Assembly: GCF_051903065.1 (NCBI RefSeq)
Contig: NZ_CP178438.1
Reading direction: 5' to 3' (one strand)
Length of the DNA stretch: 64,000 bases
From: Escherichia coli
GTDB taxonomy: Bacteria > Pseudomonadota > Gammaproteobacteria > Enterobacterales > Enterobacteriaceae
A program made the position numbers and the translations under genes. Each line of letters opens with the position of its first letter. The first letter of the stretch is position 1. Shown piece by piece: positions 23,365 to 59,000 of the stretch. Under the pieces are notes generated by a model, which saw only the letters and a list, made by a program, of their open reading frames with translations, did no database searches and had not been told where the DNA came from.

Positions 23365-23537
23365 AGCATTACAGTTTGCTCAGCAGGCCCCCCCTTCCCG
23401 GAAGAGTACCGGAAAACAGGCAAAGCGGCCTGGTTCTCTATGCTGGAGGCGACACGTTCAATTCGGCATTGCCAGGCTGTAGATTGCAGCTCATTGCACC
23501 CCGTGAGCACAGGATATGCACAGGGCGTGAATTGCAT

Positions 23538-29686: not shown

Positions 29687-29860
29687 TTCTTAGGGTCCAC
29701 AAGTAAAACGTTTTATGCTGATGCATCACAAAAAGACCGCAGTAAACTGCTGCAAAGAAGAGGAGATTTTTAGTCTCCCCTTCTTTATCAATCAGATCAT
29801 ACAATCAACTTAACGCCCATTAGTTGATAGCAGCCAAATTTCATAAACAGATTCAATCCG

Positions 29861-31903: not shown

Positions 31904-33350
31904 AATATTTCATCTCCCGAAACAGCCCGACCAGCTCATCTTCGGCACCATTGCGATTGTTCTTGTTCTCTCGACTGCTCATGCTAGGCAAAGGGAAGCC
32001 GTGCAGATCTCCCGGCAGACGAGCATCACGAATGGCACGGATCAGATTGTGCTCCAGCACATAGTTATCCATGGTTGCCAACTGCACTACCTGCTGGCGG
32101 ATGCGGCAGCGATAGGCCCAGATAAAGCACTTCTCGATGGCCAGTGACAGCCCTTGGCTGCCGAACTTGTCGATATAGAAGATCAGGGCGCAGTCGAACA
32201 TGGCCCGCACATAACGATCCCCGGTGCGGTGGCGACGCTCGTAGCTGCCCAGGGTCGATAGCACCTTGCTGGCCATCGGTGTCAGCGTTTCGCCGAGCAG
32301 GGTGGCAGATTGCGCCTTGCCGGAATCAGACTCCTCGGCCACGATGGCGGCCACCCGCGTCTGGTAGTACTCGGCCATCTCGAAAAAGCGCCGACCATTG
32401 ATGATCATCTGGTCGAGATGAAAGGGAAACGTCATGTACTGGCCGTCAATCTTGCGCTGGTACTGGCGGTTGTACTCATCGACAAAGTGGTGGGCGATGC
32501 GCAGCGACTCCACGTAAGGATAATGCCCTACCCGATCTAGGTTGACCCCCTTGAAGAGATCCACCTCCCCCTTGCCAAAGTAGCGGGCCGACTTGCCCTC
32601 GGCCCACTGGCGTACCCGATAGAGATAGAGGGCGAACAGATTGGCCAGCTCGTCGCTTGGCAGGCGCTCCCAATGGGCGACCGCCTCGGCCTTGAGATTG
32701 GCCTCATGACCGGCAAACTCGCGCAGGTGAAATGCCTTGAGCAGATCGTGAGGAGCCAGATCGCGCCCCCGGGCATTTTGCGAATCGAAGAACTGGAACG
32801 CCTCCGAGATATCCTGCAGTACAAAGCAGACCACCTGACAGCGGTTGAGCAGAAAGTCAATTTGCTGCTCGTCAAACTCAGGGCGGGCCACCAGCCGACG
32901 CAACTCCAGATAGTTGCGTCTGAGGTTGAACTCCGAATCCCGGCTGGGGAAGCGCTGGCGCTGCATAAACGCATCGATAGGTCCACGCAAGACCTGCAAT
33001 TGCTCACGCAGATCCTGACGTTGAAACCGGATACTCTTCTCTTTGCCACTGCGATTTTCGTTATCCAGCACCTCGATCAGCGCCTTGACGGTCAACATCA
33101 GGGTCAGGGTGCGTTGCTGACCATCGACGATATCAAGCATCTCGCCCTGCTCACTATCGGTGTGCTGATGAAACACCACCGAGCCCAGCCGGTAGGCGCT
33201 CTTGTCCTGATGGGTTGCCAAATCGGTAAAGAGATCCGAGATATTCTTGGAGCCCCAGCGGTAAGGTCGCTGATAGCTTGGGATGGCCAGTTGGGGAATG
33301 GCCAGCAACTGGCGTACCGACTGCACTTGATTATTAATGCTCTCCATCAT
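31896..33350 (-). CDS. DUF262 (ParB/Srx-like NTPase) protein, GmrS-like, no recognisable nuclease domain
   Basis: Motifs [22 protein letters not shown] and DGQQRTLTL; translationally coupled to the DUF262-DUF1524 gene. Confidence 0.7.
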
Positions 33351-33371
33351 GCCTCCTGCGGTATGAAGTGG

Positions 33372-33973
<602 letters not shown>

Positions 33974-34004
33974 GACAAATGAGCCCATTGGAATAAGTTA
34001 GAAA

Positions 34005-34760
34005 CTACATATCTGCCAACAACATCCCAGCCATACCATCCAGTCGCTTCTTAACCTTTTCCCAGCCCGGCATAACCTGCCCCATCAGACGGTAAAACTC
34101 CTCGCTGTGGTTGTGCTCAGCCACATGGCATAACTCATGTAGCAAAACATAATCGATACATTCTGAGGATGCCTTAACCAGCCATGGATTCAGGGTCAGA
34201 CAGCCTTTTGCTGAACAGTTGCCCCATTGCGTTTGCATCGCCCGCAGACGTATCGGAGGACGCTCACTGACCCAAAGGGTCTGCGGAATCAGTAAATCAA
34301 GCCTGCGCTGAAAAACATCTCTGGCACGTTCCCGATACCATTCAGCCAGCAAGGCTTTAATCTTTTCTGCCGATTTGTGTCTGACAGTCACTTCCAGACG
34401 CCCACGCAACATTTTCACTCGTTGCGGCACAGTAGCGTCTTCTGTCACTTTCAACTGATATTGCTTACCGAGATAATAATGGCTTTCTCCGCTGACATAC
34501 TGACGCGGAACAATGTGTATCTGTTGCTCCCTGAAATCACGCAGTTGCTGGTATATCCAGCGCCCACGTTTTTTCAGCGCAGACAATACCTCGTGCTCCG
34601 GTGTTTCAGGCGGTACAGAGGCCACAACCCGGCAGTCCGGATAAACCTTAATGAGCACCCTGCCCTTTACGACCTGACGCGGAACACACTGTACGACGAT
34701 GACCTCATCACCATAGACAATGCGTAACGCTTTCATTGATGGCGATTCTTTTTCACTCAT
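34005..34760 (-). CDS. DUF45/M48-family zinc metallopeptidase (YgjP-like), often linked to type I R-M loci
   Basis: 251-aa ORF with HExxH motif HELCHVAEHNH; ATGA overlap with the hsdR stop. Confidence 0.7.
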   Translation of the reverse strand: MSEKESPSMKALRIVYGDEVIVVQCVPRQVVKGRVLIKVYPDCRVVASVPPETPEHEVLSALKKRGRWIYQQLRDFREQQIHIVPRQYVSGESHYYLGKQYQLKVTEDATVPQRVKMLRGRLEVTVRHKSAEKIKALLAEWYRERARDVFQRRLDLLIPQTLWVSERPPIRLRAMQTQWGNCSAKGCLTLNPWLVKASSECIDYVLLHELCHVAEHNHSEEFYRLMGQVMPGWEKVKKRLDGMAGMLLADM

Positions 34761-37700
34761 GATTTCATCAAACCAACGCGCAGTATCTGGATGATGGTTT
34801 CCACAATACGGTTAACCTGATTCATTCCGGCACCAATTTCCCGGCAGGCCGTAAACAGCAGTGGTAGCAGACTTGTCTTAACGACTTTCTCAATGTCCTG
34901 GGGGTTCAGGGAGTTTTCTGCCACCGCTCTAACGATAATGCTGTCCACTTCAAAAGCCAGCTTCGTCCACTTATCCTGCACCTGAACGTCTTTTACCACA
35001 AAAACCTCAGGTAGCTCTTTTTTAAATACACCGTAATACGCCTGAGCATGCTTGTTTACCGCCAGTGCATCCGGGATATCGCTGAGCTTACGGGCTTCAA
35101 CCTGTTCTTCAAACTCACGGAATAAGAGGTACTGCTTAAGTGGATGGTCGAACAGTTTTTCAGCCTCTTCGATTGCCATACGCAGGAGTCTGGAAAAGGC
35201 CTCCTGAGCATACGGATCATCACGCAGCTCCTGCTCAATCATCTTCGTCACACGGGTTTTAATGATGTCGGTTTCATTGCGGGTTTTATTGTTGTCCCAC
35301 TCTTCGGGCTTTTCGCTCTTACCCATTTTACCGACTTCATACACGCCATCCGGTTCACGAACCTCAACGCCGGTGACATGCTTATCCAGCAGTTTTTTCA
35401 CCTGCTCGGCGTAGTCGTCATAATTGACCTGCTCTCCACTGACCTGCATCGCCCACTGGCGCAGGCTGGACATCTGTTTTACGGTTTCTTTATAGAGGTT
35501 TCGGTCTTGTTCCGTAAAGCTCTTGTCGGTGAAGAAGGTGGCGGACTGCAGTGCCACTTTCAGGCATCCGGCAAAGGCCGTTAACGCCTCGAAGAAATCA
35601 TCACGGGTTTTCTGATGGATATCGACCATCTCTCCGTCACGTTCTTCCATTTTAGGCACCAGTACCGCACGTAACTGCTCAGTATCATTTTTGTTTTTGA
35701 CACCAGCAAATATGGCCCACAGCTGGTTATACAGATGCGGCAGGCGCTTGTATTCAGAGCTCATGGCGCTGTACAGCCCGTCAATATCTTTGATGTCGTA
35801 TCCGCCCTGAGTTCGGGAGGCGAGGTCCTGATATTTGCCGATAGTCGTGTCCAGCTCAGCCAGAATACCGCGATAATCAATCAGCAGACCGAACTTTTTT
35901 AGTGGATGCAGTCGGTTCACCCGCGCAATCGCCTGGATAAGGTTGTGGGACTTAAGCGGCTTGTCGATATACAGCACGGTATTCTTCGGCTCATCAAACC
36001 CGGTGAGCAGTTTATCAACGACTATCAGCAATTTGAGCTTCTCATCGGTATCGAAACGACTGATGATATTGCGGGTATACACAGACTCATCCTGCGTGCC
36101 GACGTTATCTTTCCACCATTTCGTCACTTCCGGCAGTTTGCTTTCATCCACCTCAGTATTCCCTTCCCGGGTATCCGGCGGGCTGATAACTACAGCTGAC
36201 TCAAACAACCCGGCTTCATCAAGATACTTTTTATATTTGATGGCGGAAATCTTGCTGTCGCAGGCAAGCTGGCCTTTCAGCCCCTCATCAATATTCTTCG
36301 AGAAGTGCGTGGCGATATCGAGTGCGATCAGACGGATGCGATCATCTGCACTATAAACCTCACCTTTACGGGCATATTTACGCTTAAGGTCGGCTTTTTG
36401 CGCTTCGCTTAACCCATCGGTAATACGATCAAACCAGGCATCTATTGCCCGATCGTTAACCTCAAGGTCGGGAATACGTTCTTCATACAGCAAAGGTGTA
36501 ACGGCTTTATCTTCTACCGCTCGCTGCATGGTATAAGCGTGGACAATCGGTCCGAATTTATTGGTGGTCTTATCTTCTTTTAGCAATGGCGTACCAGTAA
36601 ATGCTACAAAGGCGGCGTTCGGCAGTGCCAGTTTCATTCGCACATGGTTCTCACCACCCTGGCTACGGTGTCCTTCATCAATCAGAACGATGATATCGGG
36701 GCTGGTATTGACGCATTCAGGAAGTTTTGTCGCTGAATTAAATTTCTGGATTAGGGTGAAAATGATGCGTTCTTTACCGGAGCCAATCTGTTTCGCCAGC
36801 ATCTGCCCGGATGTCGCCATTGCATTGGCTTTGTCTTTTTTCCCGGCCAACTCGCCGCCGGATGCAAAGGTACTGCTGAGCTGTTCTTCAAGATCGATAC
36901 GGTCCGTCACCACCACGATACGACACCGCTTCAGGCTGTCATGAAGGATCAGCGCCTTGCTGAGGAACACCATGGTGTACGATTTGCCAGAGCCGGTGGT
37001 ATGCCAGATAACACCACCTTCCCTGCCCCCATCGGGTCTGCGGGTACTGATGCGTTCCAGCAGTCTTTTAATCCCGAACACCTGCTGATAGCGGGCAACA
37101 ATTTTTCCGGTCTTTTTATCAAACAGGGTGAAGAAGCGGGTCATCTCCAGCAGACGTTCCGGCGAAAGCAGACTGATGAGCAGCTTATCCTGCCCGCTGA
37201 CAGCCAGTTCCCCCCCGGCGATTAACTGCTGATACCAGTTGAGATCGCCAACAGGACGATGCTCAAATAACGCATCAATTTGTTCAGTCGATAAAGGATG
37301 GTTGCGCAGGGCATACATCTGCGCATCGGTAATATCCTCTTCGCGCCATGCCGCCCAGAATTTCATTGGCGTATGGCATGTACCGTAGCGCCCGTCATGA
37401 CCGTTAATCGAAAGTAATAACTGGCTGTAGACAAACAGCTGCGGGATTTCATCGTTGAACTGGTTGCGGATACTCTGGGATATCCCCTCGTCAATGGTTG
37501 GCCCTTTCTTGCCATGACCAGCCGGGCTTTTCGCTTCAATAACAGCCAGCGGGATACCATTAACAAAGCAGACAATATCTGGCCTCCGGGTTTCAACACC
37601 ACCTGACCGCAATACCGTAAATTCTTCAGTAAAATGGAACTGGTTATTTTCCGGATGTTCCCAGTCGATCAGCGCAATGGTGGGGTTGACCTTCTTGCCA

Positions 37701-38044
37701 TCGACAAACTCCGTGACGGCGATACCGTAGAGCAGATGGTTATACATCCGCTCATTGGCTTTGAGCAGCCCTTCATTCAGCGCCGGAGAACAGACCTGTG
37801 ATATCAGGTTATCCAGTGCTTTTTCCGATAACTGGCAGGTTTTGCCACCCGCCATAAAGGAACGCTTCGACAGCTCTTCACGCAGAACCGGACGCAGCAC
37901 CACCTCATCCTGTTTATAGCCCCGGTAATCCATAATCTGTTTCGGAGATAAAAACGCCCAGCCGAGGCTGGTCAGTAACGTCAGTGCCGGAATTTTGGCG
38001 CTGTATTCTTCCTGGAATTTTGGCGTGTACGTCTGGTTCATCAT
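34757..38044 (-). CDS. hsdR: type I restriction enzyme R subunit
   Basis: 1095-aa ORF MMNQTYTPKFQEEYSAKIPALTLLTSLGWAF; helicase motifs HTTGSGKSYTMVF and VLIDEGHRSQ; operon with hsdM and hsdS. Confidence 0.9.
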   Translation of the reverse strand: MMNQTYTPKFQEEYSAKIPALTLLTSLGWAFLSPKQIMDYRGYKQDEVVLRPVLREELSKRSFMAGGKTCQLSEKALDNLISQVCSPALNEGLLKANERMYNHLLYGIAVTEFVDGKKVNPTIALIDWEHPENNQFHFTEEFTVLRSGGVETRRPDIVCFVNGIPLAVIEAKSPAGHGKKGPTIDEGISQSIRNQFNDEIPQLFVYSQLLLSINGHDGRYGTCHTPMKFWAAWREEDITDAQMYALRNHPLSTEQIDALFEHRPVGDLNWYQQLIAGGELAVSGQDKLLISLLSPERLLEMTRFFTLFDKKTGKIVARYQQVFGIKRLLERISTRRPDGGREGGVIWHTTGSGKSYTMVFLSKALILHDSLKRCRIVVVTDRIDLEEQLSSTFASGGELAGKKDKANAMATSGQMLAKQIGSGKERIIFTLIQKFNSATKLPECVNTSPDIIVLIDEGHRSQGGENHVRMKLALPNAAFVAFTGTPLLKEDKTTNKFGPIVHAYTMQRAVEDKAVTPLLYEERIPDLEVNDRAIDAWFDRITDGLSEAQKADLKRKYARKGEVYSADDRIRLIALDIATHFSKNIDEGLKGQLACDSKISAIKYKKYLDEAGLFESAVVISPPDTREGNTEVDESKLPEVTKWWKDNVGTQDESVYTRNIISRFDTDEKLKLLIVVDKLLTGFDEPKNTVLYIDKPLKSHNLIQAIARVNRLHPLKKFGLLIDYRGILAELDTTIGKYQDLASRTQGGYDIKDIDGLYSAMSSEYKRLPHLYNQLWAIFAGVKNKNDTEQLRAVLVPKMEERDGEMVDIHQKTRDDFFEALTAFAGCLKVALQSATFFTDKSFTEQDRNLYKETVKQMSSLRQWAMQVSGEQVNYDDYAEQVKKLLDKHVTGVEVREPDGVYEVGKMGKSEKPEEWDNNKTRNETDIIKTRVTKMIEQELRDDPYAQEAFSRLLRMAIEEAEKLFDHPLKQYLLFREFEEQVEARKLSDIPDALAVNKHAQAYYGVFKKELPEVFVVKDVQVQDKWTKLAFEVDSIIVRAVAENSLNPQDIEKVVKTSLLPLLFTACREIGAGMNQVNRIVETIIQILRVGLMKS

Positions 38045-38093
38045 TAATCCTTTTCTTTCTGGCGCTACTCGCTACTGGTCACATGAAGATTCA

Positions 38094-38777
38094 TCAATGC
38101 AGACAGCACCTCTTAAATTTTTTACCGCTGCCACACGGACACGGGTCATTTCGCCCGGGCATGTTTTCTGCCCCCTTCACTGGAACAGGCCGGGATGATG
38201 CCTCTGACATTCTCACTGACAACCAGTACTGATAAAGTGCCAGTGCAGCAGGCTGAATAAGGGAAATACTTTTCTCAAACTGCTCTCCGGTCATTTTCTC
38301 AAGTACAGGAAAATTCTTCTCCACGCCATGAAGAGCGATCACTTCCAGAGAAGGCCGTAACTCACCGGGAAGACCAGACCAGTCATCCAGTGACTTTCCT
38401 TTCATATAACCAAAACACCACTCTTCCACAATGGTATATTTTTCCCCCTTTACCTCACGCTCATTGAAAATCGGTTCAAACTGTTCAGGGGCCTCATACA
38501 GGCAGCCAGCGATATCGTTCATATGCTGAAAACACAGCCCCACAAAACGCGTCATCTCTTTTTCGGTGGTCCAGCGAGGGTGGTAATCACCTCGCCCCCA
38601 GATAGCACTGAGCCAGGTATTAGGGGAAATCGTATTCGGGCCAGAGACAATCGCTGTCAGAAAGCCATCCAGCTCAGAGAAACAGAGCACAGAATCATCA
38701 TTGCCGTATTTCAGCAACACCTCTTCCAGCCAGTCGATTTCCCGGTCAATCAGCGGCCCGCTTTTCGTCAGTTTCAT
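38094..38777 (-). CDS. YecA-like UPF0149 / SEC-C motif protein, paralogue of chromosomal yecA, inside the hsd operon
   Basis: 227-aa ORF MKLTKSGPLIDREIDWLEEVLLKYG... aligns along its length with YecA (20434-21099), including [11 protein letters not shown] and the terminal [21 protein letters not shown]; start overlaps hsdS stop, 49 bp before hsdR. Confidence 0.85.
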   Translation of the reverse strand: MKLTKSGPLIDREIDWLEEVLLKYGNDDSVLCFSELDGFLTAIVSGPNTISPNTWLSAIWGRGDYHPRWTTEKEMTRFVGLCFQHMNDIAGCLYEAPEQFEPIFNEREVKGEKYTIVEEWCFGYMKGKSLDDWSGLPGELRPSLEVIALHGVEKNFPVLEKMTGEQFEKSISLIQPAALALYQYWLSVRMSEASSRPVPVKGAENMPGRNDPCPCGSGKKFKRCCLH

Positions 38778-40012
38778 TCGGCAACCGCCTCATCGACCTT
38801 AACACGACGTTTGCCAGTCAGTAGCTGTTGCATCAGGGCTTTTTTCTCATCTCTCAGGCAGGCGAGTTTTTTCTCCAGCGTGGAGATTTCGGCATCGGCG
38901 ACGGACAGGACGGCGGCGATTTTTTGTTGTTCTCTTATACTGGGTAAGTCTAGTTCAAACTCTTTAACCATTCCGGCGTTTAGGTTGGACTGTGTACCTT
39001 GCTGGCCTTGTAGTTTTATTTTTTCTTTTAATGATGTAAGATAGAAATATAAAAACTCATAATTTAAACAATCTTTTGGTCTAATACCCAAGATTGCCTG
39101 CGAAGATGTTAAATTTACAGCAGCAATGCTGCATTCACCTATAGAAGCATACATAGCATAAAGAACCGAGTTTTTTGGATATATTCTTGCGGATGAACTG
39201 TTCAATCCTAATTCAGTCAGATATTTTTCAGTTGTAGCAATCCACTTTCCATTAGATGTCATATCAGAAATAGATACCCATGGGATATTCCCGCCATAAT
39301 ACTCTTCAACCGTTGATTTCGGAGTACCTCCACTGTTCATATCGGCTATCGCACCCAGTTTTACTCTCTTCCACTCCCCACTAAACCTCACCCCATTCTC
39401 ATCCAGCAAGCGTTTCTTCCCGGTAAGTAATTGCTGCATCAGGGCTTTTTTCTGCTGCTGACTATTGGCGAGCAGCTTTTCCGTCACTGAAATCGCGTTA
39501 TCCCAGGTTGACAAGATTTTGGCTATTTTCTTTTGTTCCGCCAGTGGGGGGAGTAATACAGGAAAACCGCAAACATCATCACGTGTAATATTAGGGTCTT
39601 TACGACTACTTGCCGCAAATTTCTTCCATAATTTTACATTCCCGTTTAAGTAATTCAGGATATATGCTGGTTCTGCTTTATCACGATCGAGTATAAGACC
39701 GGATAATGCTTGGTTTATTGCTGCCGGTATAGTGAGAAGTCCAGTTCTTCCGATCTGGTTAAAGCCTCCATACATCGCTACTAAAACAGTACCAACAGGA
39801 AATACAGAGCAAGATGTTTCTAAAAGGGCTGTGTCAGTAATTTTCTCATCAGTTGAGATAATTTCACCGTTATTTAGGTCTAATGTCTTTACCCATGGAG
39901 TACCAGCAGTAGAAAAATAACGCTCTCCCTCAGCCCTCAGCGGAGTAGATCCAGATTTAATTTTTGCTATGTCCGATAATTTGACATGTCTCCAGCCAGG
40001 TTTGAGCTTCAT
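38774..40012 (-). CDS. hsdS: type I restriction-modification specificity subunit
   Basis: 412-aa ORF with two target-recognition halves and conserved HsdS core LLTGK(K/R)RL; overlaps hsdM stop. Confidence 0.88.
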   Translation of the reverse strand: MKLKPGWRHVKLSDIAKIKSGSTPLRAEGERYFSTAGTPWVKTLDLNNGEIISTDEKITDTALLETSCSVFPVGTVLVAMYGGFNQIGRTGLLTIPAAINQALSGLILDRDKAEPAYILNYLNGNVKLWKKFAASSRKDPNITRDDVCGFPVLLPPLAEQKKIAKILSTWDNAISVTEKLLANSQQQKKALMQQLLTGKKRLLDENGVRFSGEWKRVKLGAIADMNSGGTPKSTVEEYYGGNIPWVSISDMTSNGKWIATTEKYLTELGLNSSSARIYPKNSVLYAMYASIGECSIAAVNLTSSQAILGIRPKDCLNYEFLYFYLTSLKEKIKLQGQQGTQSNLNAGMVKEFELDLPSIREQQKIAAVLSVADAEISTLEKKLACLRDEKKALMQQLLTGKRRVKVDEAVAE

Positions 40013-41565
40013 AAGCTATCCTCTTGCATACTGAAGTTTTCTCTTTCACCATAACCCAACTCCTTCAGATAACCCGCCATCTCTGTTTCGAGTTTTGACA
40101 GTTCCACTTTCAATTGCTCACGTTCGGCACGCACAGCCAGCAAGTCAATCTCGTCTTCTTCCTCAAAGGTATCGACATAGCGCGGAATATTGAGGTTGTA
40201 ATCGTTGTCCTGAATTTCCTTCAGGCTGGCGAGATAGGCGTATTTCTCGACGTTATCGCCATCACGGTAGGTCTTGACGATTTTCTTAATGTTTTCTTCG
40301 CTAAGCTGGTTCTGGTTTTTACCTGCCTTGAATTCACGGCTGGCATCGATAAACAGCACCTTATCATCAACTTTCTGCTTTTTGAAAATCAGAATCGCAG
40401 CCGGAATCCCCGTACCGTAGAACAGTTTTTCCGGCAGACCAATTACCGCATCCAGCAAATTTTCGTCGATCAGTTTCTGGCGAATTTTACCTTCGCTGGA
40501 GCCACGGAAAAGCACACCGTGTGGCACAACTACGCCCATACGGCCAGTTCCCGGTTTCAGGGTTTCGATCATATGCGAGATAAAAGCGTAATCTCCTTTA
40601 GTCTTCGGCGGTACACCGCGACGAAAACGGCCAAACTTATCGTTCTCAGCCTCGTCATGGCCCCACTTATCCAGGCTGAACGGTGGGTTAGCGGTCACGA
40701 TATCAAACAGCATCAGGTCGCCATTTTTATCGAGCAGTTTCGGGTTACGAATGGTATCGCCCCACTCGATTTTATGGTTGTCTTCGCCGTGCAGGAACAT
40801 GTTCATTTTCGCCAGCGACCACGTGGAGCCAATCGCTTCCTGACCAAACAACGCATAATTACGGCTGTTATGTCCGGAGACAATTTTACGTCCGCACTTC
40901 ATCAATAACGAACCAGAGCCGCAGGCCGGATCGCAGATGGTATCACCCGGTTGCGGATCAAGCAGTTCAGCAATCAGGTCTGAAACTTCTGGTGGGGTAT
41001 AGAATTCCCCGGCTTTCTGCCCACCGCTGGCGGCAAAGTTTTTGATCAGATATTCGTAGGCATTACCGATAACGTCCAGCGTACCTACACGGCTTGGCTT
41101 CAGGTTGAGATCTTCACCGGCGAAGTCTTCCAGCAACTGACGCAGGATGGTGTTCTTCTGTTTTTCTTCACCCAAGCGGTCAGTGTTAAACGAAATATCC
41201 TGGAACACGCTTTTCCCGGCATCTTTCAGTTTGGTTCCGTTGGCTTCTTCGATTGCATGCAGAGCCTGATCGATACGCTCACCGTTACCCGGCTCATGGC
41301 GGCGTTCGTACAGCGCATAAAAGCTGGCACTTTTTGGCAGTACAAAACGCTCGTTGGCCATCATCGCTTCAATCAGTTCCGGCGCATCGCCATACTGTTC
41401 TTTGTATTCGTCATAGTGATCCTGCCAGACATCTGAAATGTACTTGAGGAACAGCATGGTAAGGATAAAGTCTTTATAGGTATCAGCACTGATGGTGCCA
41501 CGGAACGTATCACACGCGGCCCACAGGGCTTTGTTGATCGTGTCCTGACTGATTTTGTCGTTCAT
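40009..41565 (-). CDS. hsdM: type I restriction-modification DNA methyltransferase subunit (N6-adenine)
   Basis: 518-aa ORF MNDKISQDTINKALWAACDTFRG; motif I DPACGSGSLL; motif IV NPPF in TANPPFSLDKWG. Confidence 0.92.
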   Translation of the reverse strand: MNDKISQDTINKALWAACDTFRGTISADTYKDFILTMLFLKYISDVWQDHYDEYKEQYGDAPELIEAMMANERFVLPKSASFYALYERRHEPGNGERIDQALHAIEEANGTKLKDAGKSVFQDISFNTDRLGEEKQKNTILRQLLEDFAGEDLNLKPSRVGTLDVIGNAYEYLIKNFAASGGQKAGEFYTPPEVSDLIAELLDPQPGDTICDPACGSGSLLMKCGRKIVSGHNSRNYALFGQEAIGSTWSLAKMNMFLHGEDNHKIEWGDTIRNPKLLDKNGDLMLFDIVTANPPFSLDKWGHDEAENDKFGRFRRGVPPKTKGDYAFISHMIETLKPGTGRMGVVVPHGVLFRGSSEGKIRQKLIDENLLDAVIGLPEKLFYGTGIPAAILIFKKQKVDDKVLFIDASREFKAGKNQNQLSEENIKKIVKTYRDGDNVEKYAYLASLKEIQDNDYNLNIPRYVDTFEEEDEIDLLAVRAEREQLKVELSKLETEMAGYLKELGYGERENFSMQEDSL

Positions 41566-44884: not shown

Positions 44885-46021
44885 ATGCCTATTCTGGATC
44901 TGCGTTTCAGCAACAAATCACTTCACCAACTTCTACATCCCCTCACGGGTTGTCAGGAATACCGTGATATTCACTGCCAAAACCTGCGTGCTCTGGTGTA
45001 TCCCAATCGGATCACGCTGGCCTTTCGTGCCACTATAAACAATCAGCGTATATATGAAACCCTGGGTCAGTTCCCTCAGCTCTGCGTTGAGGATGCCCGT
45101 CAGCATGTGATGAAACTGCTTGCTGATAAAAATCGTCTTGCGGTTCAGTCCCGTCGATTCACTGTGGAACAGGCCATCAATGACCTGTGGCTACCGGATT
45201 TGCAGTTGTATAAAAAGAGTCCTCAGTCAGAGTTGTCAAAACTCAACCTCTACGTTCGCCCGTTCTGGGGCAAGCGGCAACTTCGCGACATCACGGCAGG
45301 AGAACTAGAACAATATGCTGCTGGCTTACGGGAAAAATTACGTCCGTCAACAGTAAACCGTATCCTCGCAATATTGTCCAAAATATGCTCTCTGGCAGTA
45401 CGTGCTGGATGGATCACGCATTCCCCGATGTCACATGTCCGCTATCTGAAAGAAAATAACATTCGCTATCGCACACTGTCAGCGACAGAAATCCCGCGCT
45501 TTATTGACGCGGCAACAGCGCTGCAAACACCGGCAGCTGATTCTATATTGCTTGCTCTTTATACGGGGATGCGTATTGGTGAGGTATGTACCCTGAAATG
45601 GGAGTACTGGCACCCGGATATGCATCAACTCATACTGCCTGATACAAAGTCCGGACACCCTTTCACCTGCCCACTTGCACCTCCAGCCATTGCAGTTGTC
45701 CAGTGCCAGCAGGACCTGATGCTCAGCAAAACTTACATTTTTCCACAACTAACCGACAATGTCCGCCCTCTGGCATATCCGCGTGCAACCTTTGCCCGTA
45801 TTTGTCGGGATGCCAACATTGATAACCTGCGGATGCATGACCTGCGCCGTACCTTTGCCACCCGGGTACTACAGGCGACCGGGGATATTGCAATCGCTTC
45901 CCATCTGCTAAATCACCATTCACTCACGGCGACCCGTCGCTACGCTTTTCACAATGCAGCGACATCACACGCAGTGGTTTCTCAGGTCATAGAAAGTTAT
46001 GACACAAAAATGAACCTATGA
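44885..46021 (+). CDS. tyrosine-type site-specific recombinase/integrase (P4-like); true start may lie upstream
   Basis: Catalytic region LYTGMRIGEV, MHDLRRTFATR (HxxR) and LNHHSLTATRRYA (Tyr). Confidence 0.85.
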   Translation: MPILDLRFSNKSLHQLLHPLTGCQEYRDIHCQNLRALVYPNRITLAFRATINNQRIYETLGQFPQLCVEDARQHVMKLLADKNRLAVQSRRFTVEQAINDLWLPDLQLYKKSPQSELSKLNLYVRPFWGKRQLRDITAGELEQYAAGLREKLRPSTVNRILAILSKICSLAVRAGWITHSPMSHVRYLKENNIRYRTLSATEIPRFIDAATALQTPAADSILLALYTGMRIGEVCTLKWEYWHPDMHQLILPDTKSGHPFTCPLAPPAIAVVQCQQDLMLSKTYIFPQLTDNVRPLAYPRATFARICRDANIDNLRMHDLRRTFATRVLQATGDIAIASHLLNHHSLTATRRYAFHNAATSHAVVSQVIESYDTKMNL

Positions 46022-46364: not shown

Positions 46365-48058
46365 GAACACAGCAAATAATGCTAATAATGCACTGAACAT
46401 TCTTCCTGAAGCAGCAAACGGCTTTGTTGAATAAATCGAACTTTTGCTGAGTTGAAGGATCAGATCACGTATCTTCCCGACAACGCAGACCGTTCCGTGG
46501 CAAAGCAAAAGTTCAAAATCACCAACTGGCCCACCTACAATAAAGCCCTCATCAACCGTGGCTCCATAACTTTCTGGCTGGATGATGAAGCTATTCAGGC
46601 CTGGTATGAGTCAGCAACACCTTCTTCACGAGGCAGACCTCAGCGCTATTCTGACCTTGCCATCACGACTGTGCTGGTCATTAAACGCGTATTCAGGCTG
46701 ACCCTGCGCGCTGCGCAGGGCTTTATTGATTCCATTTTTTCTCTGATGAACGTTCCGCTACGCTGCCCGGATTACAGCTGTGTCAGCAGGCGGGCAAAGT
46801 CGGTTAATGTCAGTTTCAAAACGCCCACCCGGGGTGAAATCGCACACCTGGTAATTGATTCCACCGGGCTGAAGGTCTTCGGTGAAGGCGAGTGGAAAGT
46901 CAAAAAGCATGGCCAGGAACGCCGCCGTATCTGGCGTAAGCTGCATCTCGCCGTTGACAGTAAAACACATGAAATCATCTGCGCTGACCTGTCGCTGAAC
47001 AACGTTACGGACTCAGAGGCCTTCCCCGGGTTAATCCGGCAAACCCACCGGAAAATCAGGTCAGCCGCCGCCGATGGCGCTTACGATACCCGGCTATGTC
47101 ACGATGAACTGCGGCGTAAGAAAATCAGCGCGCTTATCCCTCCCCGAAAAGGTGCGGGTTACTGGCCCGGTGAATATGCAGACCGTAACCGTGCAGTGGC
47201 TAATCAGCGAATGACCGGGAGTAATGCGCGGTGGAAATGGACAACAGATTACAACCGTCGCTCGATAGCGGAAACGGCGATGTACCGGGTAAAACAGCTG
47301 TTCGGGGGTTCACTGACACTGCGTGACTACGATGGTCAGGTTGCAGAGGCTATGGCCCTGGTACGAGCGCTGAACAAAATGACGAAAGCAGGTATGCCTG
47401 AAAGCGTGCGTATTGCCTGAAAACACAACCCGCTACGGGGGAGACTTACCCGAAATCTGATTTATTCAACAAAGCCGCAGCAAACACAGCTGTAGACAAC
47501 GATGAAAAATATCTGTCCTTTGCATTAGTTCTCGCTATCACGATTATGGACAACTTAGTAAAGCTCATCGGCACAGATGGCTTCGTACTTTATACCTACA
47601 CCCTGCAGGACACGGCTACTGCTCGTGCTGTTTTTAATGAATTAGCCAGGCGTCTCAAAAATTTCAATCGTCAGGAGGAGGTCTACACCACCGATTCCCT
47701 CACCTTTCGAATGAAATACATTTACGGTGTTACCCTGTTCGAACATGATAGTAAATCTATCCTTAACCTCTTTGATAAGAAGGGTTATCCGGTATTGAGT
47801 GAATCAGGAGAACCCGGTTCTCTTGATGATATGTATCTTGACATTCAAGCCCGATTACATGGCGGCTACGCCTCAAAAAAGTTTCTTCATTTACATGAAC
47901 ATTGTCTGTTATCTGCACACGTTACCCCGTCTGTGGAAAAGACGCAACGCGGTATCCTGATTAAAGTAGGCAGGAAACTCGTTTCCTTTATCCATGTAGA
48001 TGATGAATCACACAAAACCGATATTTTCAAATCTGTAGTAAATGTTATTAAATCTTGA
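46354..48058 (+). pseudogene. small ORF interrupted by IS903 after codon 22; the 3' part persists as a 170-aa ORF (47546-48058)
   Basis: ATG at 46354 (MVTKNTANNANNALNILPEAAN) runs into the IS; removing the IS and one TSD copy restores an in-frame ORF of about 212 codons ending 48058. Confidence 0.65.
46420..47476 (+). mobile_element. IS903-like element (IS5 family, 1057 bp; transposase ORF 46452-47420) with 9-bp target-site duplication
   Basis: Terminal inverted repeats ggctttgttgaataaatcg / cgatttattcaacaaagcc; 322-aa DDE transposase ORF; TSD gcagcaaac at 46411-46419 and 47477-47485. Confidence 0.9.
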
Positions 48059-48066
48059 TTCTTTAT

Positions 48067-48094
48067 GCCGGGACACAGCTCCCGGCATTTTTTC
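48067..48094 (+). terminator. hairpin plus T-run between the interrupted ORF and the polymerase gene (terminator or attenuator)
   Basis: Stem gccggga/tcccggc followed by attttttc, 11 bp before the RBS and ATG at 48105. Confidence 0.45.
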
Positions 48095-48104: not shown

Positions 48105-50705
48105 ATGAGCAATAATTTGCAGGACATCCTCGCTGCCGCCTCGGGGTATCAGTCCGTGACTTCAGAGCCAGCGTTCAATCGTAAAAGACCTAAAACGCTT
48201 GATGATTATCCTGTGATACCACCTGCATCAAAAAAAGTATCTGTTATTTCAAGTGACCTGACACTCCATATCGGTTTTGATACCGAATATGTTTTCAACC
48301 CTGAAACACGACAGAATGATATTCTGTCATATCAGAGTTATGTTGTCTTACCCGATAATACAGGTATATCGAACATTATCTATCCACCTGACTCACAGAA
48401 AAAATCCCGGCTGTCTTTTAAGGAATTTCTCTGTCAAACGATTACACCGCTTCTTGAAACGGGTGTGATTACAAAATGGCCCGGTATTATTAATATATAT
48501 GCGCATTTCATTCGTGCGGATATCGCCTCCTTTGCCAATTTCTGGTCAGACTACAAAATTCTTCTGAAAGGAATACGCGGTACTGTCAGCAGCTTCAAAA
48601 ATCGTTACGGTATCGATTTTGATGAACAGCAGGAACGTCGCGTAAAGACTGAACAGATAATGTTTGACAAACGAACTTCCCCTCCGCGTTGCAGTAACGT
48701 AGCTTTCATCGATACACTGCTTATCACTCCCGGGGGTATGGGTCTGGCTGAATGTGGTGAATTACTGGGTCTTCCCAAACTCACCATTCCTGCACCTTAT
48801 TCCATAACCAATATGCGTGAATATCTTCTGGGCGACAGAGCAGGGTTTGAAGCCTATGCTCTGCGGGATGCCGAGATTGCGGTTCGTTATGCTTTACAGG
48901 TTCGCAATTTTTGCGCCCGGGAGCTGATGATTGATCGTGTCCCCGCCACCATCGGGGCGATGGCAGTTTCACGGTTCACCAAAACACTTAAAGAAAACAA
49001 TATGTCTCCTGAAGTCTGCCTTGGGACACACATTAAAACCCGTGAACTCTGGCTCACGGAGAAACAGGCATTCCGGACGATTAAAAACCCCGCCAGTGTT
49101 CCTTCAAGAGAGTTGTTTGAAACGTTCCCGATCAACTGTTACCACGGCGGACGCAATGAGTGTTTTATGATGGGGGTTACACCGTCTGATCACTGGTATG
49201 ACTACGATCTGGCTGGAGCGTATACCACCGGGCTATTAGATATCCTCACACCCGATTACGGGAACATCCGCCTCAGTAAAAATCCGGACGATTACTGTGG
49301 GCATGTAATGGGATTTGCGCTTGTCACATTTCGGTTCCCGGAATCAGTTCCCTATCCCAGCCTGCCGGTTCGGACCGATCAATATGGGTTATTCTTTCCA
49401 TTAAGTGGCGAATCATGGGCAACGGCACCTGAAATCGAACTTGCTCTGTCGCTCGGGGCAGAGATGACGATCCATAATGGGATCATCGTCCCCTGGATCT
49501 GTGACACCTCCCCACATAACAGCGAATCAACATCGGTGTTTCTTCCCTTTGTTCAACAGGTCCGTGAGAACCGTAATCGCCATATTAAAGGTTCTCTGGA
49601 GGAGAAATTCTGGAAAGAAATTGGCAACTCGCTTTATGGCAAACTTGCTCAGGGCCTTCGCGCCAAAACCGCCTTTGATACTGCCCGTGGATTAAACAGA
49701 TCCCTCCCACCATCATCGGTTACTCAGCCATTCTTTGCTGCGCATGTGACGGGATTTATCCGCGCCGTTGTCGGGGAACTCATGAATGCTTTGCCTTCTG
49801 ATTCATCGGTTGTCAGCGTCACAACCGATGGTTTTTTGACAAATTGCCCACTTGACAAGATAAACATGAGCGGTCCACTGTCTTCCCGCTTCCAGTCGCT
49901 GTGCGATATTGTTGATCCGGGTTCATCAATGTTGACATGTAAGCATGAGGTCAGCCAGCTTATCGCCATGAAAACCCGGGGGCAGTTAACCTATAGAGCT
50001 ATTCAGGGAAAACCTGTTGTTCATGCCAGGGCTGGCGTCAAACCTCCTGCCGATATTCCACGCAGTGACTATAACGACTATATGGTAGATCTTTACCTTA
50101 ATCGTTTACCCGGTCAGACGTTATCCCGAAGTACGTTGATATCAACGCGTGAGATGTGGCTCTCGGAAAGCGATCTGGTATCCCGGGAACAGGATATCCG
50201 TCTTAATCTGGAATTCGATTTCAAACGCCAGCCCGTACAGCCCGCCATGAATGAAGGGCATTTACTGATGTTTTCCCGCCCGTGGGATAATATGGAAGAG
50301 GCTCTGCAGCAACGCTCTCTTTTCGACGACTGGCGGCAAACGCATACACTGAAGACCCTGGCTGACTGGGATGACTGGTGTGATTTTCTCTATTGCCGGA
50401 CGGTGTTTTCTGATATGAAACTAAAAGTCGGAAGCAAACGTAGTGATGATATTTTAGTCAGACTATTTCTCCGGGCGCTGACTCAGTGCCAATGGGGGCT
50501 GATGCTGAAAGATAAAAAAAGTTATTCCTGTAAAGAGGTTGCTGAATGGCTGACGTCAGAAGGCTATTCAGTAACGGTGACTGATGTAAAAAATGCGGTA
50601 AGAGCAAAAATACCCCAAATGAAATTTAGTTCTGTAACACCGCGAATGAAGTCACTGATGGATATCATAGCCCGTAAATATCCGACATTCTGTCTTCCAG
50701 TCTGA
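48105..50705 (+). CDS. family-B DNA polymerase with piPolB-like motifs (pipolin primer-independent PolB)
   Basis: Exo I in LHIGFDTEYVF; YALRD (Exo III-like); KTRG in AMKTRGQLTY; motif B KEIGNSLYGKLAQ; motif C SVTTDGFL; RBS ggag before ATG 48105. Confidence 0.8.
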   Translation: MSNNLQDILAAASGYQSVTSEPAFNRKRPKTLDDYPVIPPASKKVSVISSDLTLHIGFDTEYVFNPETRQNDILSYQSYVVLPDNTGISNIIYPPDSQKKSRLSFKEFLCQTITPLLETGVITKWPGIINIYAHFIRADIASFANFWSDYKILLKGIRGTVSSFKNRYGIDFDEQQERRVKTEQIMFDKRTSPPRCSNVAFIDTLLITPGGMGLAECGELLGLPKLTIPAPYSITNMREYLLGDRAGFEAYALRDAEIAVRYALQVRNFCARELMIDRVPATIGAMAVSRFTKTLKENNMSPEVCLGTHIKTRELWLTEKQAFRTIKNPASVPSRELFETFPINCYHGGRNECFMMGVTPSDHWYDYDLAGAYTTGLLDILTPDYGNIRLSKNPDDYCGHVMGFALVTFRFPESVPYPSLPVRTDQYGLFFPLSGESWATAPEIELALSLGAEMTIHNGIIVPWICDTSPHNSESTSVFLPFVQQVRENRNRHIKGSLEEKFWKEIGNSLYGKLAQGLRAKTAFDTARGLNRSLPPSSVTQPFFAAHVTGFIRAVVGELMNALPSDSSVVSVTTDGFLTNCPLDKINMSGPLSSRFQSLCDIVDPGSSMLTCKHEVSQLIAMKTRGQLTYRAIQGKPVVHARAGVKPPADIPRSDYNDYMVDLYLNRLPGQTLSRSTLISTREMWLSESDLVSREQDIRLNLEFDFKRQPVQPAMNEGHLLMFSRPWDNMEEALQQRSLFDDWRQTHTLKTLADWDDWCDFLYCRTVFSDMKLKVGSKRSDDILVRLFLRALTQCQWGLMLKDKKSYSCKEVAEWLTSEGYSVTVTDVKNAVRAKIPQMKFSSVTPRMKSLMDIIARKYPTFCLPV

Positions 50706-56436: not shown

Positions 56437-57666
56437 TCACATCTGCTTCGTAGCCGCAGTATTCAGAAGCAGGTCAGTCACTCCCTGCCCTGTCTGACGC
56501 ATACGTTCCGGTGTTAATTTCGCGTAACGTTCTGTACTCTGAATACTGGCATGCGCCAGTTGGGCTTTAACGTCATACAGGCTGAATTGACCACTCGAAA
56601 CCAGTAAAGAGGCAACAGAATGACGTGTGGTGTGAAAACAGACTTCATTCTTGTCTATACCGCACTGTGCCAGTATTTTTTCATATGCCCATCGGGGTTC
56701 CGATATCGGTTTTCCATTATCCTTAATGGCGAACAGATACGGATTACTGCCAACTCGTGGGATAGCATCAATAATCGATAATGCGGCATCGCTTAGATAT
56801 ACCGTCCGACTGCGACCATTTTTTGTATAAGGAATGAACAGAGTACGATTGGCCCGGTCGATATGTTCATGCCTGACATTAAGCATTTCTGATTTGCGTG
56901 TACCGGTTAACAACAACATGGCTATCAATCCCCCGGCAGCTTTGTTGGGATATTGGGTAGCAGCGTCAAGAATGCGCCTGATCTCATCAGCATCAAAAAA
57001 GCGCGTCCGCTGATTATTCTCTTTCAGTAAAGGGATCTTATCGGCTTCATTCTTTTCCAGCACATCCTGTCGCAACGCATAACGCCCCATCGTTTTCAGA
57101 ATAGCAAGGGCTCTGTTACAGGTAGACGGCGCATATTGCTGCCCGTGAATACGCCCCTCCAGCATGTCAAACAGCACCTGTTGTATCTCTCTGGCCCTGA
57201 GATCGCAGTAACGTATCTTTCCCAGACGAGGTTCAATGTATTGCGTGAAACGCTGAACATCCTTATCCCAGGACTTTTTATGGCGCTTGATGAACGGAAC
57301 ATAGGTCTGGTGAAAAAACTCACTAAGCGTTGGCATCGCACGATAATTATCGCGCTCTGCCTTGGGGTCATTTCCAAGTGCAATCGCCTCCTTATGACGG
57401 CGAGCTATCTGGCGAGCTGTCCCCACATCAATTTCAGGGAATCTGCCAATACTGATACTTTTTTTGGTACCGTGGAATGTGTAGCGCAGGAGGAAACGTT
57501 TGTTACCCGTTCGACCTGAGAGACATTTGAGGCCAATAACTTCGGTATCAGATACCTCAAGCTCTGTAGATCGGGTATCTGTGTTTGCCGGAAGGGCTTT
57601 GATGGATGAATTGGTGAATCGGAAGGATTTTTGCATATTTATCCTCATGTATCTGATTGATATCAT
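56437..57666 (-). CDS. tyrosine-type site-specific integrase (P4-like), next to the att/leuZ junction; start may be the internal Met at 57636
   Basis: 409-aa ORF; catalytic motifs LLTGTRKSEM, HTTRHSVASLL and ERYAKL. Confidence 0.88.
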   Translation of the reverse strand: MISIRYMRINMQKSFRFTNSSIKALPANTDTRSTELEVSDTEVIGLKCLSGRTGNKRFLLRYTFHGTKKSISIGRFPEIDVGTARQIARRHKEAIALGNDPKAERDNYRAMPTLSEFFHQTYVPFIKRHKKSWDKDVQRFTQYIEPRLGKIRYCDLRAREIQQVLFDMLEGRIHGQQYAPSTCNRALAILKTMGRYALRQDVLEKNEADKIPLLKENNQRTRFFDADEIRRILDAATQYPNKAAGGLIAMLLLTGTRKSEMLNVRHEHIDRANRTLFIPYTKNGRSRTVYLSDAALSIIDAIPRVGSNPYLFAIKDNGKPISEPRWAYEKILAQCGIDKNEVCFHTTRHSVASLLVSSGQFSLYDVKAQLAHASIQSTERYAKLTPERMRQTGQGVTDLLLNTAATKQM

Positions 57667-58457: not shown

Positions 58458-58629
58458 AGCATTACAACTTGCTCAGCAGGCCCCCCTTCCCGGAAGAGTA
58501 CCGGAAAACAGGCAAAGCGGCCTGGTTCTCTATGCTGGAGGCGACACGTTCAATTCGGCATTGCCAGGCTGTAGATTGCAGCTCATTGCACCCCGTGCGC
58601 ACAGGATATGCACAGGGCGTGAATTGCAT

Positions 58630-58754
58630 GCACAAAAAAACCACCCGAAGGTGGTTTCACGACACTGCTTATTGCTTTGATTATTCTGATGTTTCCCATG
58701 GTACCCGGAGCGGGACTTGAACCCGCACAGCGCGAACGCCGAGGGATTTTAAAT
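58630..58754. repeat. att direct repeat copy 3 (element-borne terminator plus the 3' 56 nt of intact leuZ)
   Basis: Matches copies 1 and 2 through gggattttaaat, after which the intact tRNA continues. Confidence 0.85.
58634..58657 (-). terminator. Rho-independent terminator of the glyW-cysT-leuZ operon (also present in att copies 1 and 2)
   Basis: Minus-strand hairpin aaccacc-ttcg-ggtggtt followed by ttttttt. Confidence 0.75.
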
Positions 58755-58785
58755 CCCTTGTGTCTACCGATTCCACCATCCGGGC
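58699..58785 (-). tRNA. leuZ: tRNA-Leu (UAA anticodon)
   Basis: Reverse complement reads GCCCGGATGGTGGAATCGGTAGACACAAGGGATTTAAAATCCC...CTCCGGGTACCA (87 nt, CCA end). Confidence 0.95.

Positions 58786-58924: not shown

Positions 58925-59000
<76 letters not shown>

Follow-up and report, generated by a model that had tools for sequence, protein, structure and literature searches.

A predicted primer-independent family B DNA polymerase (piPolB) encoded in the core module of a pipolin at tRNA-Leu(UAA) of Escherichia coli

Among family B DNA polymerases (PolBs), piPolB is the only one known to self-prime DNA synthesis; the self-synthesising mobile elements that it defines make up a third class. A characterised enzyme of this kind is encoded by the pipolin of E. 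coli 3-373-03_S1_C2 (Redrejo-Rodriguez et al., Cell Rep 2017; PMC5695915). It is a processive, strand-displacing and proofreading DNA polymerase that bypasses non-bulky lesions and starts DNA chains de novo from ssDNA and dNTPs, without primer, primase or terminal protein (PMC5695915). Mutation of D59 and E61 yielded an exonuclease-deficient enzyme, D368A is the polymerase-dead variant, K613 is needed for priming as well as for translesion synthesis, and SxTTDG has been defined as the piPolB signature (PMC5695915). Among the published E. coli piPolBs, identity exceeds 98.8%, and some of the genes are truncated. A primer-free whole-genome amplification method built on piPolB has also been described (bioRxiv 10.1101/2023.03.17.533076).

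The elements that carry these genes have been surveyed as well, and enterobacterial pipolins were found to be bimodular defence islands (Mateo-Caceres & Redrejo-Rodriguez, NAR 2024; PMC11551731) whose core genes include those for a WYL and a DUF2787 protein (PMC11551731). Casposons and polintons are likewise integrated mobile elements with their own PolB; unlike pipolins, they rely on Cas1 or a retroviral-type integrase, end in terminal inverted repeats and encode a protein-primed PolB.

Here, we describe a pipolin in a 64,000-nt window of an E. coli chromosome (NZ_CP178438.1, assembly GCF_051903065.1), whose features are collected in Table 1. An initial annotation, made from the sequence alone, had singled out an 866-aa ORF as a stand-alone PolB with piPolB-type motifs located on an integrated element. 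This observation is confirmed and the interpretation is supported; what needs correcting is the novelty, as the enzyme family and its E. coli orthologue have already been characterised biochemically and the element has been described too (2017–2024). The ORF is very probably piPolB, the hallmark of pipolins, residing in the conserved core module of an enterobacterial pipolin of ~35 kb that is integrated into tRNA-Leu(UAA).

Table 1. Features of the pipolin, its integration site and its polymerase (positions in the window; amino acid positions refer to the 866-aa protein).
Feature	Position	Strand	Remarks
attL, yecA side	21218..21350		133 bp
Tandem remnant of a second pipolin, about 2.2-2.3 kb	21351..23531		Restriction-endonuclease pseudogene, IS1A, right-end fragment; PGAP
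Internal att copy	23532..23662		attP-like: pipolin right-end flank on the left, left-end flank on the right; three-way alignment
Distal cargo module	23939..41565	-	Hhe, two DUF262 (HEC-06-like), IS remnants, M48 peptidase, type I RM
Tyrosine recombinase, 378 aa, placed as published IntP2	44885..46021	+	XerC/XerD-type NCBIfam, E 2e-16
Excisionase-like HTH protein, 66 aa	46164..46364	+	TIGR01764, E 3.5e-5, 24.1 bits (cut-off 28.8 bits)
IS903B (IS5-family) copy, frameshifted transposase	46420..47477	+	Between excisionase-like gene and orphan/piPolB pair
Orphan ORF, 170 aa	47546..48058	+	Immediately 5' of piPolB; PGAP hypothetical
Terminator-like hairpin + T-run	48065..48094	+	Between orphan stop codon and piPolB RBS
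piPolB gene	48105..50705	+	866 aa plus stop; translation; predicted primer-independent family-B DNA polymerase
ExoI motif FDTEY	aa 58-62; 48276..48290	+	D59, E61 each 66/67
PolA motif DLAGAY	aa 368-373; 49206..49223	+	Catalytic D368 67/67, Y373 67/67
PolB motif KEIGNSLYGKLAQ	aa 504-516 (K504-Q516); 49614..49652	+	Aligns to phi29 KLMLNSLYGKFA
PolC variant SVTTDG	aa 571-576; 49815..49832	+	T573 in place of first Asp; D575 catalytic
Extended KH-X8-KTRG motif, in place of KxY	aa 613-626; 49941..49982	+	K613-H614, K623-G626
C-terminal domain, all-helical, conserved	aa 727-866; 50283..50702	+	Past phi29-homologous core
HTH-WYL regulator, 300 aa	51460..52362	+	PADLOC WYL models, E 7.5e-22; two genes downstream of piPolB
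DUF2787 protein, 144 aa	54630..55064	-	PGAP
Site-specific tyrosine integrase adjoining attR, placed as published IntSXT	56437..57666	-	XerC-type NCBIfam E 6.5e-24; PRK09692
attR	58624..58754		131 bp; overlaps 3' 56 nt of tRNA-Leu
tRNA-Leu(UAA), integration target	58699..58785	-	First of Leu-Cys-Gly tRNA cluster; ARAGORN, Rfam

The polymerase gene is intact, as had been noted: translation reveals no interruption in its 866 codons, and stop codons occur throughout the opposite strand. Its start is the one chosen by PGAP, is preceded by a GGAG 8 nt 5' of the ATG and reproduces the published residue numbering. An in-frame ATG further upstream, at 48042, would give a protein of 887 aa and was rejected because it overlaps the end of the 170-aa ORF and crosses the terminator-like hairpin. 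In NZ_AP045789.1, a 99.99% identical record that differs from the window by four 1-bp indels, PGAP labels the product 'DNA polymerase type-B family protein'. The gene is present in 295 of 5,426 complete E. coli genomes (~5%): 277 other complete genomes share it at 99% identity or more and 18 at 95-99%, and it is chromosomal every time. Many database records still carry piPolB as a 'hypothetical protein'.

An exhaustive phmmer search returned 2,080 homologues at E<=1e-3, 569 of them at E<=1e-30, and residue conservation was counted in an alignment of 67 diverse homologues; given this number of homologues and the conservation across the 67 sequences, the motifs are not chance matches. All those listed in the initial annotation, namely the DxE of FDTEY, KTRG, motif B and TTDG, were recovered in collinear order. 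Along the protein, the exonuclease and polymerase motifs follow one another at residues 58, 139, 251, 368, 504, 573 and 623. The site of a DEDD-type 3'-5' exonuclease is complete (D59, E61, D139, Y251 and D255), with D139 conserved in 60 of 67 sequences, replaced by Glu in 6 more, and Y251 and D255 each conserved in 66. The predicted polymerase site uses D368 of motif A and D575 of motif C. In motif B, K504 and G512 are invariant, N508 is found in 66/67 and Y511 in 64/67 homologues; in motif C, TTDG spans aa 573-576, where T573 is shared by 61 homologues and T574, D575 and G576 by all 67. The catalytic aspartates whose loss would have spoken against a PolB are thus both present in 67/67 sequences. 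In the extended motif that stands in for KxY, K613 is invariant (67/67) and R625 nearly so (66/67).

The profile libraries proved almost blind to this protein. Pfam reports DNA_pol_B_2 alone, at an E value of 0.014, NCBIfam reports no family, PHROG DNA-polymerase families match at 5e-7 and 5e-5 without spanning the whole protein, and PDB searches with either the single sequence or the 67-sequence profile gave chance-level matches. Direct profile-profile alignment by hhalign to the phi29 DNA polymerase (DNAP), although weak (probability 26%, E 7e-4), is collinear motif to motif, contrary to the refuting outcome named in the initial annotation, and includes the TPR1 and TPR2 regions. In this alignment, the exonuclease residues D139 and Y251/D255 of piPolB pair with D66 and Y165/D169 of phi29, the polymerase residues D368, K504/Y511 and T573/D575 pair with D249, K383/Y390 and D456/D458, and SVTTDG aligns with the phi29 YCDTDS. 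Structure prediction, likewise proposed at the outset, agrees with this picture. The AF2 model (pLDDT 89.3, pTM 0.88) has a predicted fold that is phi29-like, and the nine best Foldseek matches are all phi29 DNAP (best E 2.7e-16). As no profile library names the protein confidently, its assignment to PolB rests on the motifs, the weak profile-profile alignment and the predicted structure; the PDB copy searched contains no experimental structure of a piPolB.

These lines of evidence jointly place the protein in family B by its ExoI, ExoII and ExoIII acidic residues, its motifs A, B and C with their catalytic aspartates and its overall fold, and with the piPolBs by SxTTDG, KH-X8-KTRG and the insertions TPR1 and TPR2, which protein-primed PolBs have as well. 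Like the phi29 enzyme (a protein-primed PolB; PDB 1XHX, 2PYJ), it has collinear ExoI-III and PolA/B/C motifs, and processivity and strand displacement are published traits of both types of polymerase. However, the two are only ~11-13% identical in sequence; piPolB has a Thr for the first motif-C Asp and a KTRG with upstream KH for KxY, uses no terminal protein, primes de novo, begins with ~50 disordered residues and ends in an extra helical domain of ~140 aa. This C-terminal domain, conserved across the family, has no structural match among PDB entries. The words 'C-terminal' and 'thumb' are absent from the main text of PMC5695915.

The protein described here shares with piPolB of 3-373-03_S1_C2 the species, the length register, SxTTDG plus KH-X8-KTRG and the type of element at tRNA-Leu, and the seven residues mutated in that enzyme are numbered identically (D59, E61, D368, K613, H614, K623 and R625). 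Together with the published conservation of E. coli piPolBs, this numbering suggests that the two proteins match, and the matching residues lead us to expect that the enzyme would, like its E. coli orthologue, initiate synthesis de novo without primer or terminal protein. The present locus differs in having IS903B ~630 bp upstream and a third att copy; no functional difference is detectable from the sequence.

The polymerase gene sits in an insertion of 37.4 kb at tRNA-Leu(UAA), between yecA and leuZ, whose ends are direct att repeats of ~131 bp. When the left flank of attL was joined to the right flank of attR, the rebuilt empty site was found with 100% identity over 750 bp in other E. coli, and the uninterrupted yecA-tRNA-Leu site is at least 80% covered in one piece in 3,792 of 5,426 genomes. 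The integrated element suspected initially is thus a pipolin, and the insertion as a whole is the bimodular enterobacterial pipolin of the literature. As in PMC11551731, the core adjoins attR and tRNA-Leu and consists of integrase, DUF2787, WYL, piPolB, orphans, and a recombinase with an excisionase-like gene, whereas the distal cargo comprises exactly the systems named in that paper, i.e. type I RM, PDC-S12, hhe and HEC-06. What sets this element apart from the published pipolins is its specific set of cargo genes, its IS complement and the tandem remnant. A casposon or polinton was rejected: in contrast to the integrases and terminal inverted repeats of these elements, this one is flanked by direct att repeats at a tRNA gene, and the only recombination enzymes that PGAP annotates anywhere in the insertion are tyrosine recombinases and IS transposases, with no Cas1 or retroviral-type integrase.

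Two intact tyrosine recombinases occupy the expected positions. Their P2 and SXT names are given by position: the 378-aa recombinase was placed as IntP2 because the excisionase-like gene comes next, as described in PMC11551731, and the enzyme placed as IntSXT is called 'site-specific integrase' by PGAP; the excisionase-like match itself lies below the curated cut-off. In the cargo, the type I RM system is an hsdR/S/M set in which a PDC-S12 (YecA-like) gene is embedded (PGAP, PADLOC), and PADLOC recognises Hhe over its full length (E=0), HEC-06 (E 3e-33) and PDC-S12 (E 2e-99). Type-4 UDG, reported to be frequent in E. coli pipolins, was not found among the tested ORFs of this element. The initial annotation had seen no terminal-protein or replisome genes near the polymerase, and this holds for the insertion: PGAP annotates no primase, SSB, clamp or terminal protein in it, and the tested orphans match no such family. 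The 170-aa orphan has no Pfam, NCBIfam or PHROGs match, neither it nor a 246-aa orphan has a match in Pfam, NCBIfam or the PDB, and the 108-aa orphan flanking piPolB matches no family. Scanned against Rfam, the full insertion yielded the three tRNAs and nothing else.

Upstream of piPolB, the locus has strain-specific details. The hairpin has a 9-bp stem with 6 GC pairs followed by TTTTTT (consensus scan), and the IS903B copy is annotated by PGAP as 'IS5 family transposase, frameshifted'. Its flanks are contiguous in another pipolin (H67), and the whole 46100-48110 stretch occurs in only 2/5,426 genomes. With both the insertion sequence and the terminator-like hairpin lying just upstream, expression of piPolB in this strain is uncertain.

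What might the polymerase do for the element? The element could be excised at its att repeats by its tyrosine recombinases and excisionase, whereupon piPolB would prime and replicate the resulting circle; re-priming and translesion synthesis by the same enzyme would raise tolerance to replication-blocking damage. Both in vivo roles, circle replication and damage tolerance, may thus apply here; they were also raised in the initial annotation and go back to hypotheses of the 2017 paper (PMC5695915).

A possible though doubtful alternative gives most of the weight to the second role, making piPolB mainly a host or island enzyme for DNA-damage tolerance, which re-primes and synthesises across lesions at stalled forks rather than replicating the excised element. 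Cells over-expressing the wild type outlive those with D368A after mitomycin C and UV, and translesion synthesis occurs in vitro (PMC5695915). The proximity of the WYL regulator fits as well, conserved neighbours having been tied to defence and DNA-damage responses (PMC11551731), and replication of the excised circle by piPolB is put forward in PMC5695915 and PMC11551731 as an expectation and not as an experimental result. Yet, survival was measured in over-expressing BL21(DE3) cells and not at the native locus, and the strict linkage of the gene to mobile elements, circular plasmids included, fits element maintenance. The window holds nothing to separate the two roles.

An improbable reading turns piPolB into a component or effector of the anti-phage arsenal that acts not as a replicase but, for instance, by untemplated or primer-independent DNA synthesis upon a trigger. 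The surrounding element is indeed a defence island with Hhe, a HEC-06-like pair, type I RM and PDC-S12 (PMC11551731), the WYL regulator is a conserved neighbour, and the Abi reverse transcriptases AbiA, AbiK and Abi-P2 defend via primer-independent DNA synthesis (PMC11077055). Against this, the gene is part of the conserved core for maintenance beside attR and not of the exchangeable cargo (PMC11551731), piPolB matches none of the PADLOC-independent defence annotations that were run, its activity in vitro is faithful, proofreading and template-dependent (PMC5695915), and a defence role is without experimental support. A broader version, in which damage or phage would trigger piPolB as a DNA-synthesis effector that is not primarily a replicase, with the C-terminal helical domain (aa 727-866) coupling the polymerase to the trigger or a partner, is speculative and hardly more probable.

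Decay of the gene into a non-functional relic within a degraded island is very unlikely. Signs of decay do exist: the island holds several IS copies (IS1 x3, remnants counted, and IS903B), the tandem pipolin has shrunk, truncated piPolB genes have been published for E. coli, and this one is preceded by a terminator-like hairpin and an IS copy. However, the frame is uninterrupted and the catalytic residues are all intact; 282 of the 295 carrier genomes hold the gene at no less than 80% coverage; and both recombinases, the excisionase-like gene and all att copies are intact. Least credible of all is a conventional protein-primed PolB of the phi29/Bam35 type served by a terminal protein hidden in a small orphan ORF beside it, a reading that can point to phi29 DNAP as by far the closest fold, to the aligned TPR1 and TPR2 regions and to flanking orphans of 170 aa and 108 aa that match no family, but which conflicts with SVTTDG and KTRG replacing the canonical YxDTDS and KxY and being invariant or nearly so family-wide, with direct att repeats at a tRNA gene and tyrosine recombinases where a linear protein-primed genome would have inverted terminal repeats, with the lack of any neighbour annotated as, or matching, a terminal protein (by sequence, which a divergent one could escape), and with published biochemistry, in which the E. 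coli orthologue initiates alone in vitro (PMC5695915).

As one of an already characterised kind of enzyme, this piPolB is of value for correct annotation, and nothing about the significance of the enzyme is new to the window. The left end of the insertion, in turn, provides a clear case of pipolins accreted in tandem, with later decay mediated by IS1. At the right-end fragment of the second pipolin, 22940-23662 is 97% identical to 58033-58754, and the exact arrangement of the remnant recurs in 2/5,426 genomes. Three-att pipolins of E. coli with a myovirus-like prophage, such as that of ETEC H10407 (PMC7385651), resemble it in their tandem occupancy of the tRNA-Leu site; unlike in those, the extra att here bounds an IS1-deleted pipolin remnant and not a prophage.

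The piPolB gene, 866 uninterrupted codons followed by a stop at 48105-50705 (+), lies opposite a strand that is dense in stops. A mechanical ORF listing offered an 887-aa version from ATG 48042, which was rejected because it shares sequence with the final codons of the 170-aa ORF upstream and its frame crosses a terminator-like hairpin, and because ATG 48105 has GGAG at the right distance, is the PGAP start and yields the published residue numbers. Of 5,426 complete E. coli genomes, 295 carry the gene, always on the chromosome (277 at ≥99% identity, 18 at 95-99%), under database labels that vary between 'DNA polymerase type-B family protein', 'DNA polymerase' and 'hypothetical protein'.

Profile libraries are almost blind to this protein: Pfam returned DNA_pol_B_2 at E 0.014, NCBIfam gave no match, PHROG DNA-polymerase families matched at 5e-7 and 5e-5 over part of the protein only, and sequence and profile searches of the PDB gave no match. 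A test based on homologue alignment and structure, as suggested in the initial annotation, was therefore built. Searched exhaustively with phmmer, 1.84 billion cluster representatives yielded 2,080 homologues at E<=1e-3, of which 569 reached E<=1e-30. Conservation was read from an alignment of the query and 66 homologues that are full length and show 29-48% identity. D368, Y373, K504, G512, T574, D575, G576 and K613 are conserved in 67/67 sequences; D59, E61, Y251, D255 and R625 in 66/67; and D139 in 60/67, with Glu in six others. The AlphaFold2 model derived from this alignment is confident (pLDDT 89.3, pTM 0.88), disorder being limited to residues 1-45 and 166-180. Its nine top Foldseek matches in the PDB are all phi29 DNA polymerase (best E 2.7e-16, TM to target 0.63-0.65), followed by archaeal, eukaryotic and viral family-B polymerases (PolBs).

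The phi29 DNA polymerase sequence used as alignment partner equals the PDB phi29 chains end to end, except for the D12A/D66A exonuclease mutations of those chains. Profile-profile alignment by hhalign was weak but collinear (E 7e-4, probability 26%, 408 columns) and also covered the TPR1 and TPR2 regions. The proposal of a stand-alone PolB with piPolB-type motifs is thus supported by the motifs, all of which were found in the 866-aa translation, by conservation, by a phi29-like fold and by an alignment showing neither the non-collinear motifs nor the missing catalytic aspartates that the initial annotation had named as counter-evidence. Sequence and model together show that the PolB is intact, that its exonuclease site is complete and that its polymerase site uses D368 and D575. 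Between KTRG and the C-terminal domain, D690 (66/67), D705 (67/67), K707 (65/67) and R708 (63/67) make up an acidic/basic cluster (50172-50228) that is near-invariant and is not a named PolB or piPolB motif.

Features of the insertion and of piPolB (window positions in nt, piPolB residues in aa; phi29 equivalents as paired by hhalign)
Feature	Position	Detail
tRNA-Leu(UAA), tRNA-Cys, tRNA-Gly	58699-59000	minus strand
Direct repeat (att), ~131 bp, three copies	21218-21350, 23532-23662, 58624-58754	3' 56 nt of tRNA-Leu plus downstream terminator
IS903B (IS5 family), frameshifted transposase	~46420-47477	between excisionase-like gene and orphan/piPolB pair
Terminator-like hairpin	48065-48094	9-bp GC-rich stem (6 GC pairs), then TTTTTT
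FDTEY	aa 58-62	
ExoII	D139	phi29 D66
ExoIII	Y251/D255	phi29 Y165/D169
YHGG	aa 346-349	phi29 YRGG
PolA, DLAGAY	aa 368-373	D368 = phi29 D249
PolB, KEIGNSLYGKLAQ	aa 504-516	K504/Y511 = phi29 K383/Y390
PolC, TTDG	aa 573-576	T573/D575 = phi29 D456/D458
KH	aa 613-614	eight residues before KTRG
KTRG	aa 623-626	

The family-defining study gives as piPolB signatures SxTTDG for YxDTDS, KH-X8-KTRG for KxY, the presence of TPR1 and TPR2, and the lack of a terminal protein (PMC5695915, 2017). Its subject was the enzyme from the pipolin of E. coli 3-373-03_S1_C2, which it characterised with the mutants D59A/E61A, D368A, K613A, H614A, K623A and R625A (PMC5695915), and every mutated position holds the same residue at the same number here. 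Because these positions coincide and the E. coli piPolBs in the literature share >98.8% identity with each other, the present protein is, judged by its sequence, the same enzyme bar a few substitutions. The E. coli orthologue synthesises DNA processively, with strand displacement and proofreading, bypasses non-bulky lesions and starts de novo on ssDNA with dNTPs alone in a K613-dependent manner (PMC5695915), properties that the present piPolB would be expected to share. Both the enzyme, including its biochemistry, and the element are already known, and the interest here is low, lying in annotation value and minor structural details.

The orthologue combines self-priming replicative synthesis with TLS, and piPolB over-expression improved survival after MMC and UV (PMC5695915). 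A recombinase and excisionase would excise the pipolin at its att sites, after which piPolB could prime and copy the resulting circle; rescue of stalled forks may be a further role of the enzyme. That piPolB replicates the circular element is put forward as expected, rather than as an experimental result, in both PMC5695915 and PMC11551731.

That the polymerase sits on an integrated element, as first proposed, is borne out by the att repeats and a reconstructed empty site. Joining the yecA-side flank, the first repeat copy and the sequence right of the third copy restores the intact yecA-tRNA-Leu site of other E. coli (100% over 750 bp), and this joined site is at least 80% covered in one piece in 3,792 of 5,426 genomes; 21351-58754 is therefore a 37.4-kb insertion. 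On its left the middle att copy is flanked by a pipolin right end and on its right by a pipolin left end, so that 21351-23531 represents what is left (2.2 kb) of a second, tandem pipolin: the pseudogene of a restriction endonuclease, IS1A and, from the right end, a fragment sharing 97% identity with 58033-58754. Whereas published three-att pipolins involve prophage (PMC7385651), the extra att here bounds a pipolin remnant. This exact arrangement (21218-23662 region) is limited to two of the 5,426 complete E. coli genomes, those of sister isolates 23CRST027 and 23CRST031; the 23CRST027 chromosome (NZ_AP045789.1) matches 18000-64000 at 99.99% identity, with 0 mismatches and four 1-bp indels.

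Based on the PGAP annotation of that record, PADLOC and NCBIfam, a 246-aa orphan comes first when the insertion is read inwards from the tRNA, followed by a tyrosine integrase, two further orphans and DUF2787. Next are an IS1 with a frameshift, DUF726 and the HTH-WYL regulator, after which piPolB stands between orphans of 108 aa and 170 aa. An IS903B, also frameshifted, separates the 170-aa orphan from the excisionase-like HTH gene, which is followed by the second tyrosine recombinase and two AT-rich orphans, beyond which lies the cargo. The cargo comprises type I RM (hsdM, hsdS and hsdR), in which a YecA-like PDC-S12 gene is embedded, together with an M48 peptidase, and then IS remnants, a pair of HEC-06-like DUF262 proteins and Hhe, a helicase of 1,911 aa. 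Published enterobacterial pipolins share a core adjoining the integration site (piPolB, IntSXT, IntP2, DUF2787, WYL and two orphans) and exchangeable cargo including type I RM, PDC-S12, hhe and HEC-06 (PMC11551731, 2024 NAR); with a comparable core and like cargo, the present element is the 'bimodular' enterobacterial pipolin of that study. No primase, SSB, clamp or terminal protein appears among the annotated genes of the insertion, nor do the tested ORFs match such families, in agreement with the suggested lack of terminal-protein or replisome partners; Hhe, a defence protein, is the sole helicase. A type-4 UDG, which is reported to be common in E. coli pipolins, was sought among the tested ORFs and not found.

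The 246-aa ORF (57717-58457), between the right-end integrase and attR, gave no match in Pfam, NCBIfam or the PDB, its sole match being a PHROG without known function, and its 3' piece has a second copy at 22944-23366. At the cargo/core junction, the 411- and 376-aa ORFs (41869-44741), with no match in NCBIfam, PHROGs or PADLOC, lie where the window is richest in AT (GC 0.34-0.37).

In other pipolins, the excisionase-like gene, the orphan and piPolB are contiguous. Since IS903B interrupts this stretch, piPolB may be separated from an upstream promoter; among the complete E. coli genomes searched, the insertion is confined to 23CRST027 and 23CRST031. The hairpin lies directly past the stop codon of the 170-aa orphan and before the piPolB ribosome-binding site, 10 nt ahead of the start codon.

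Within the cargo, the YecA-like gene (PDC-S12; NF007704 E 1e-107) occupies 38094-38777 between hsdR and hsdS, and chromosomal yecA (20434-21099) lies directly outside attL; two genes of the yecA family, 17 kb apart, are thus present in the genome. The two neighbouring, overlapping DUF262 genes (29861-33350; 680 and 483-484 aa) encode proteins that both match HEC-06, Orf5 and SspE N-terminal models over the first ~100 residues only, and may represent a two-gene form of the candidate defence system HEC-06.
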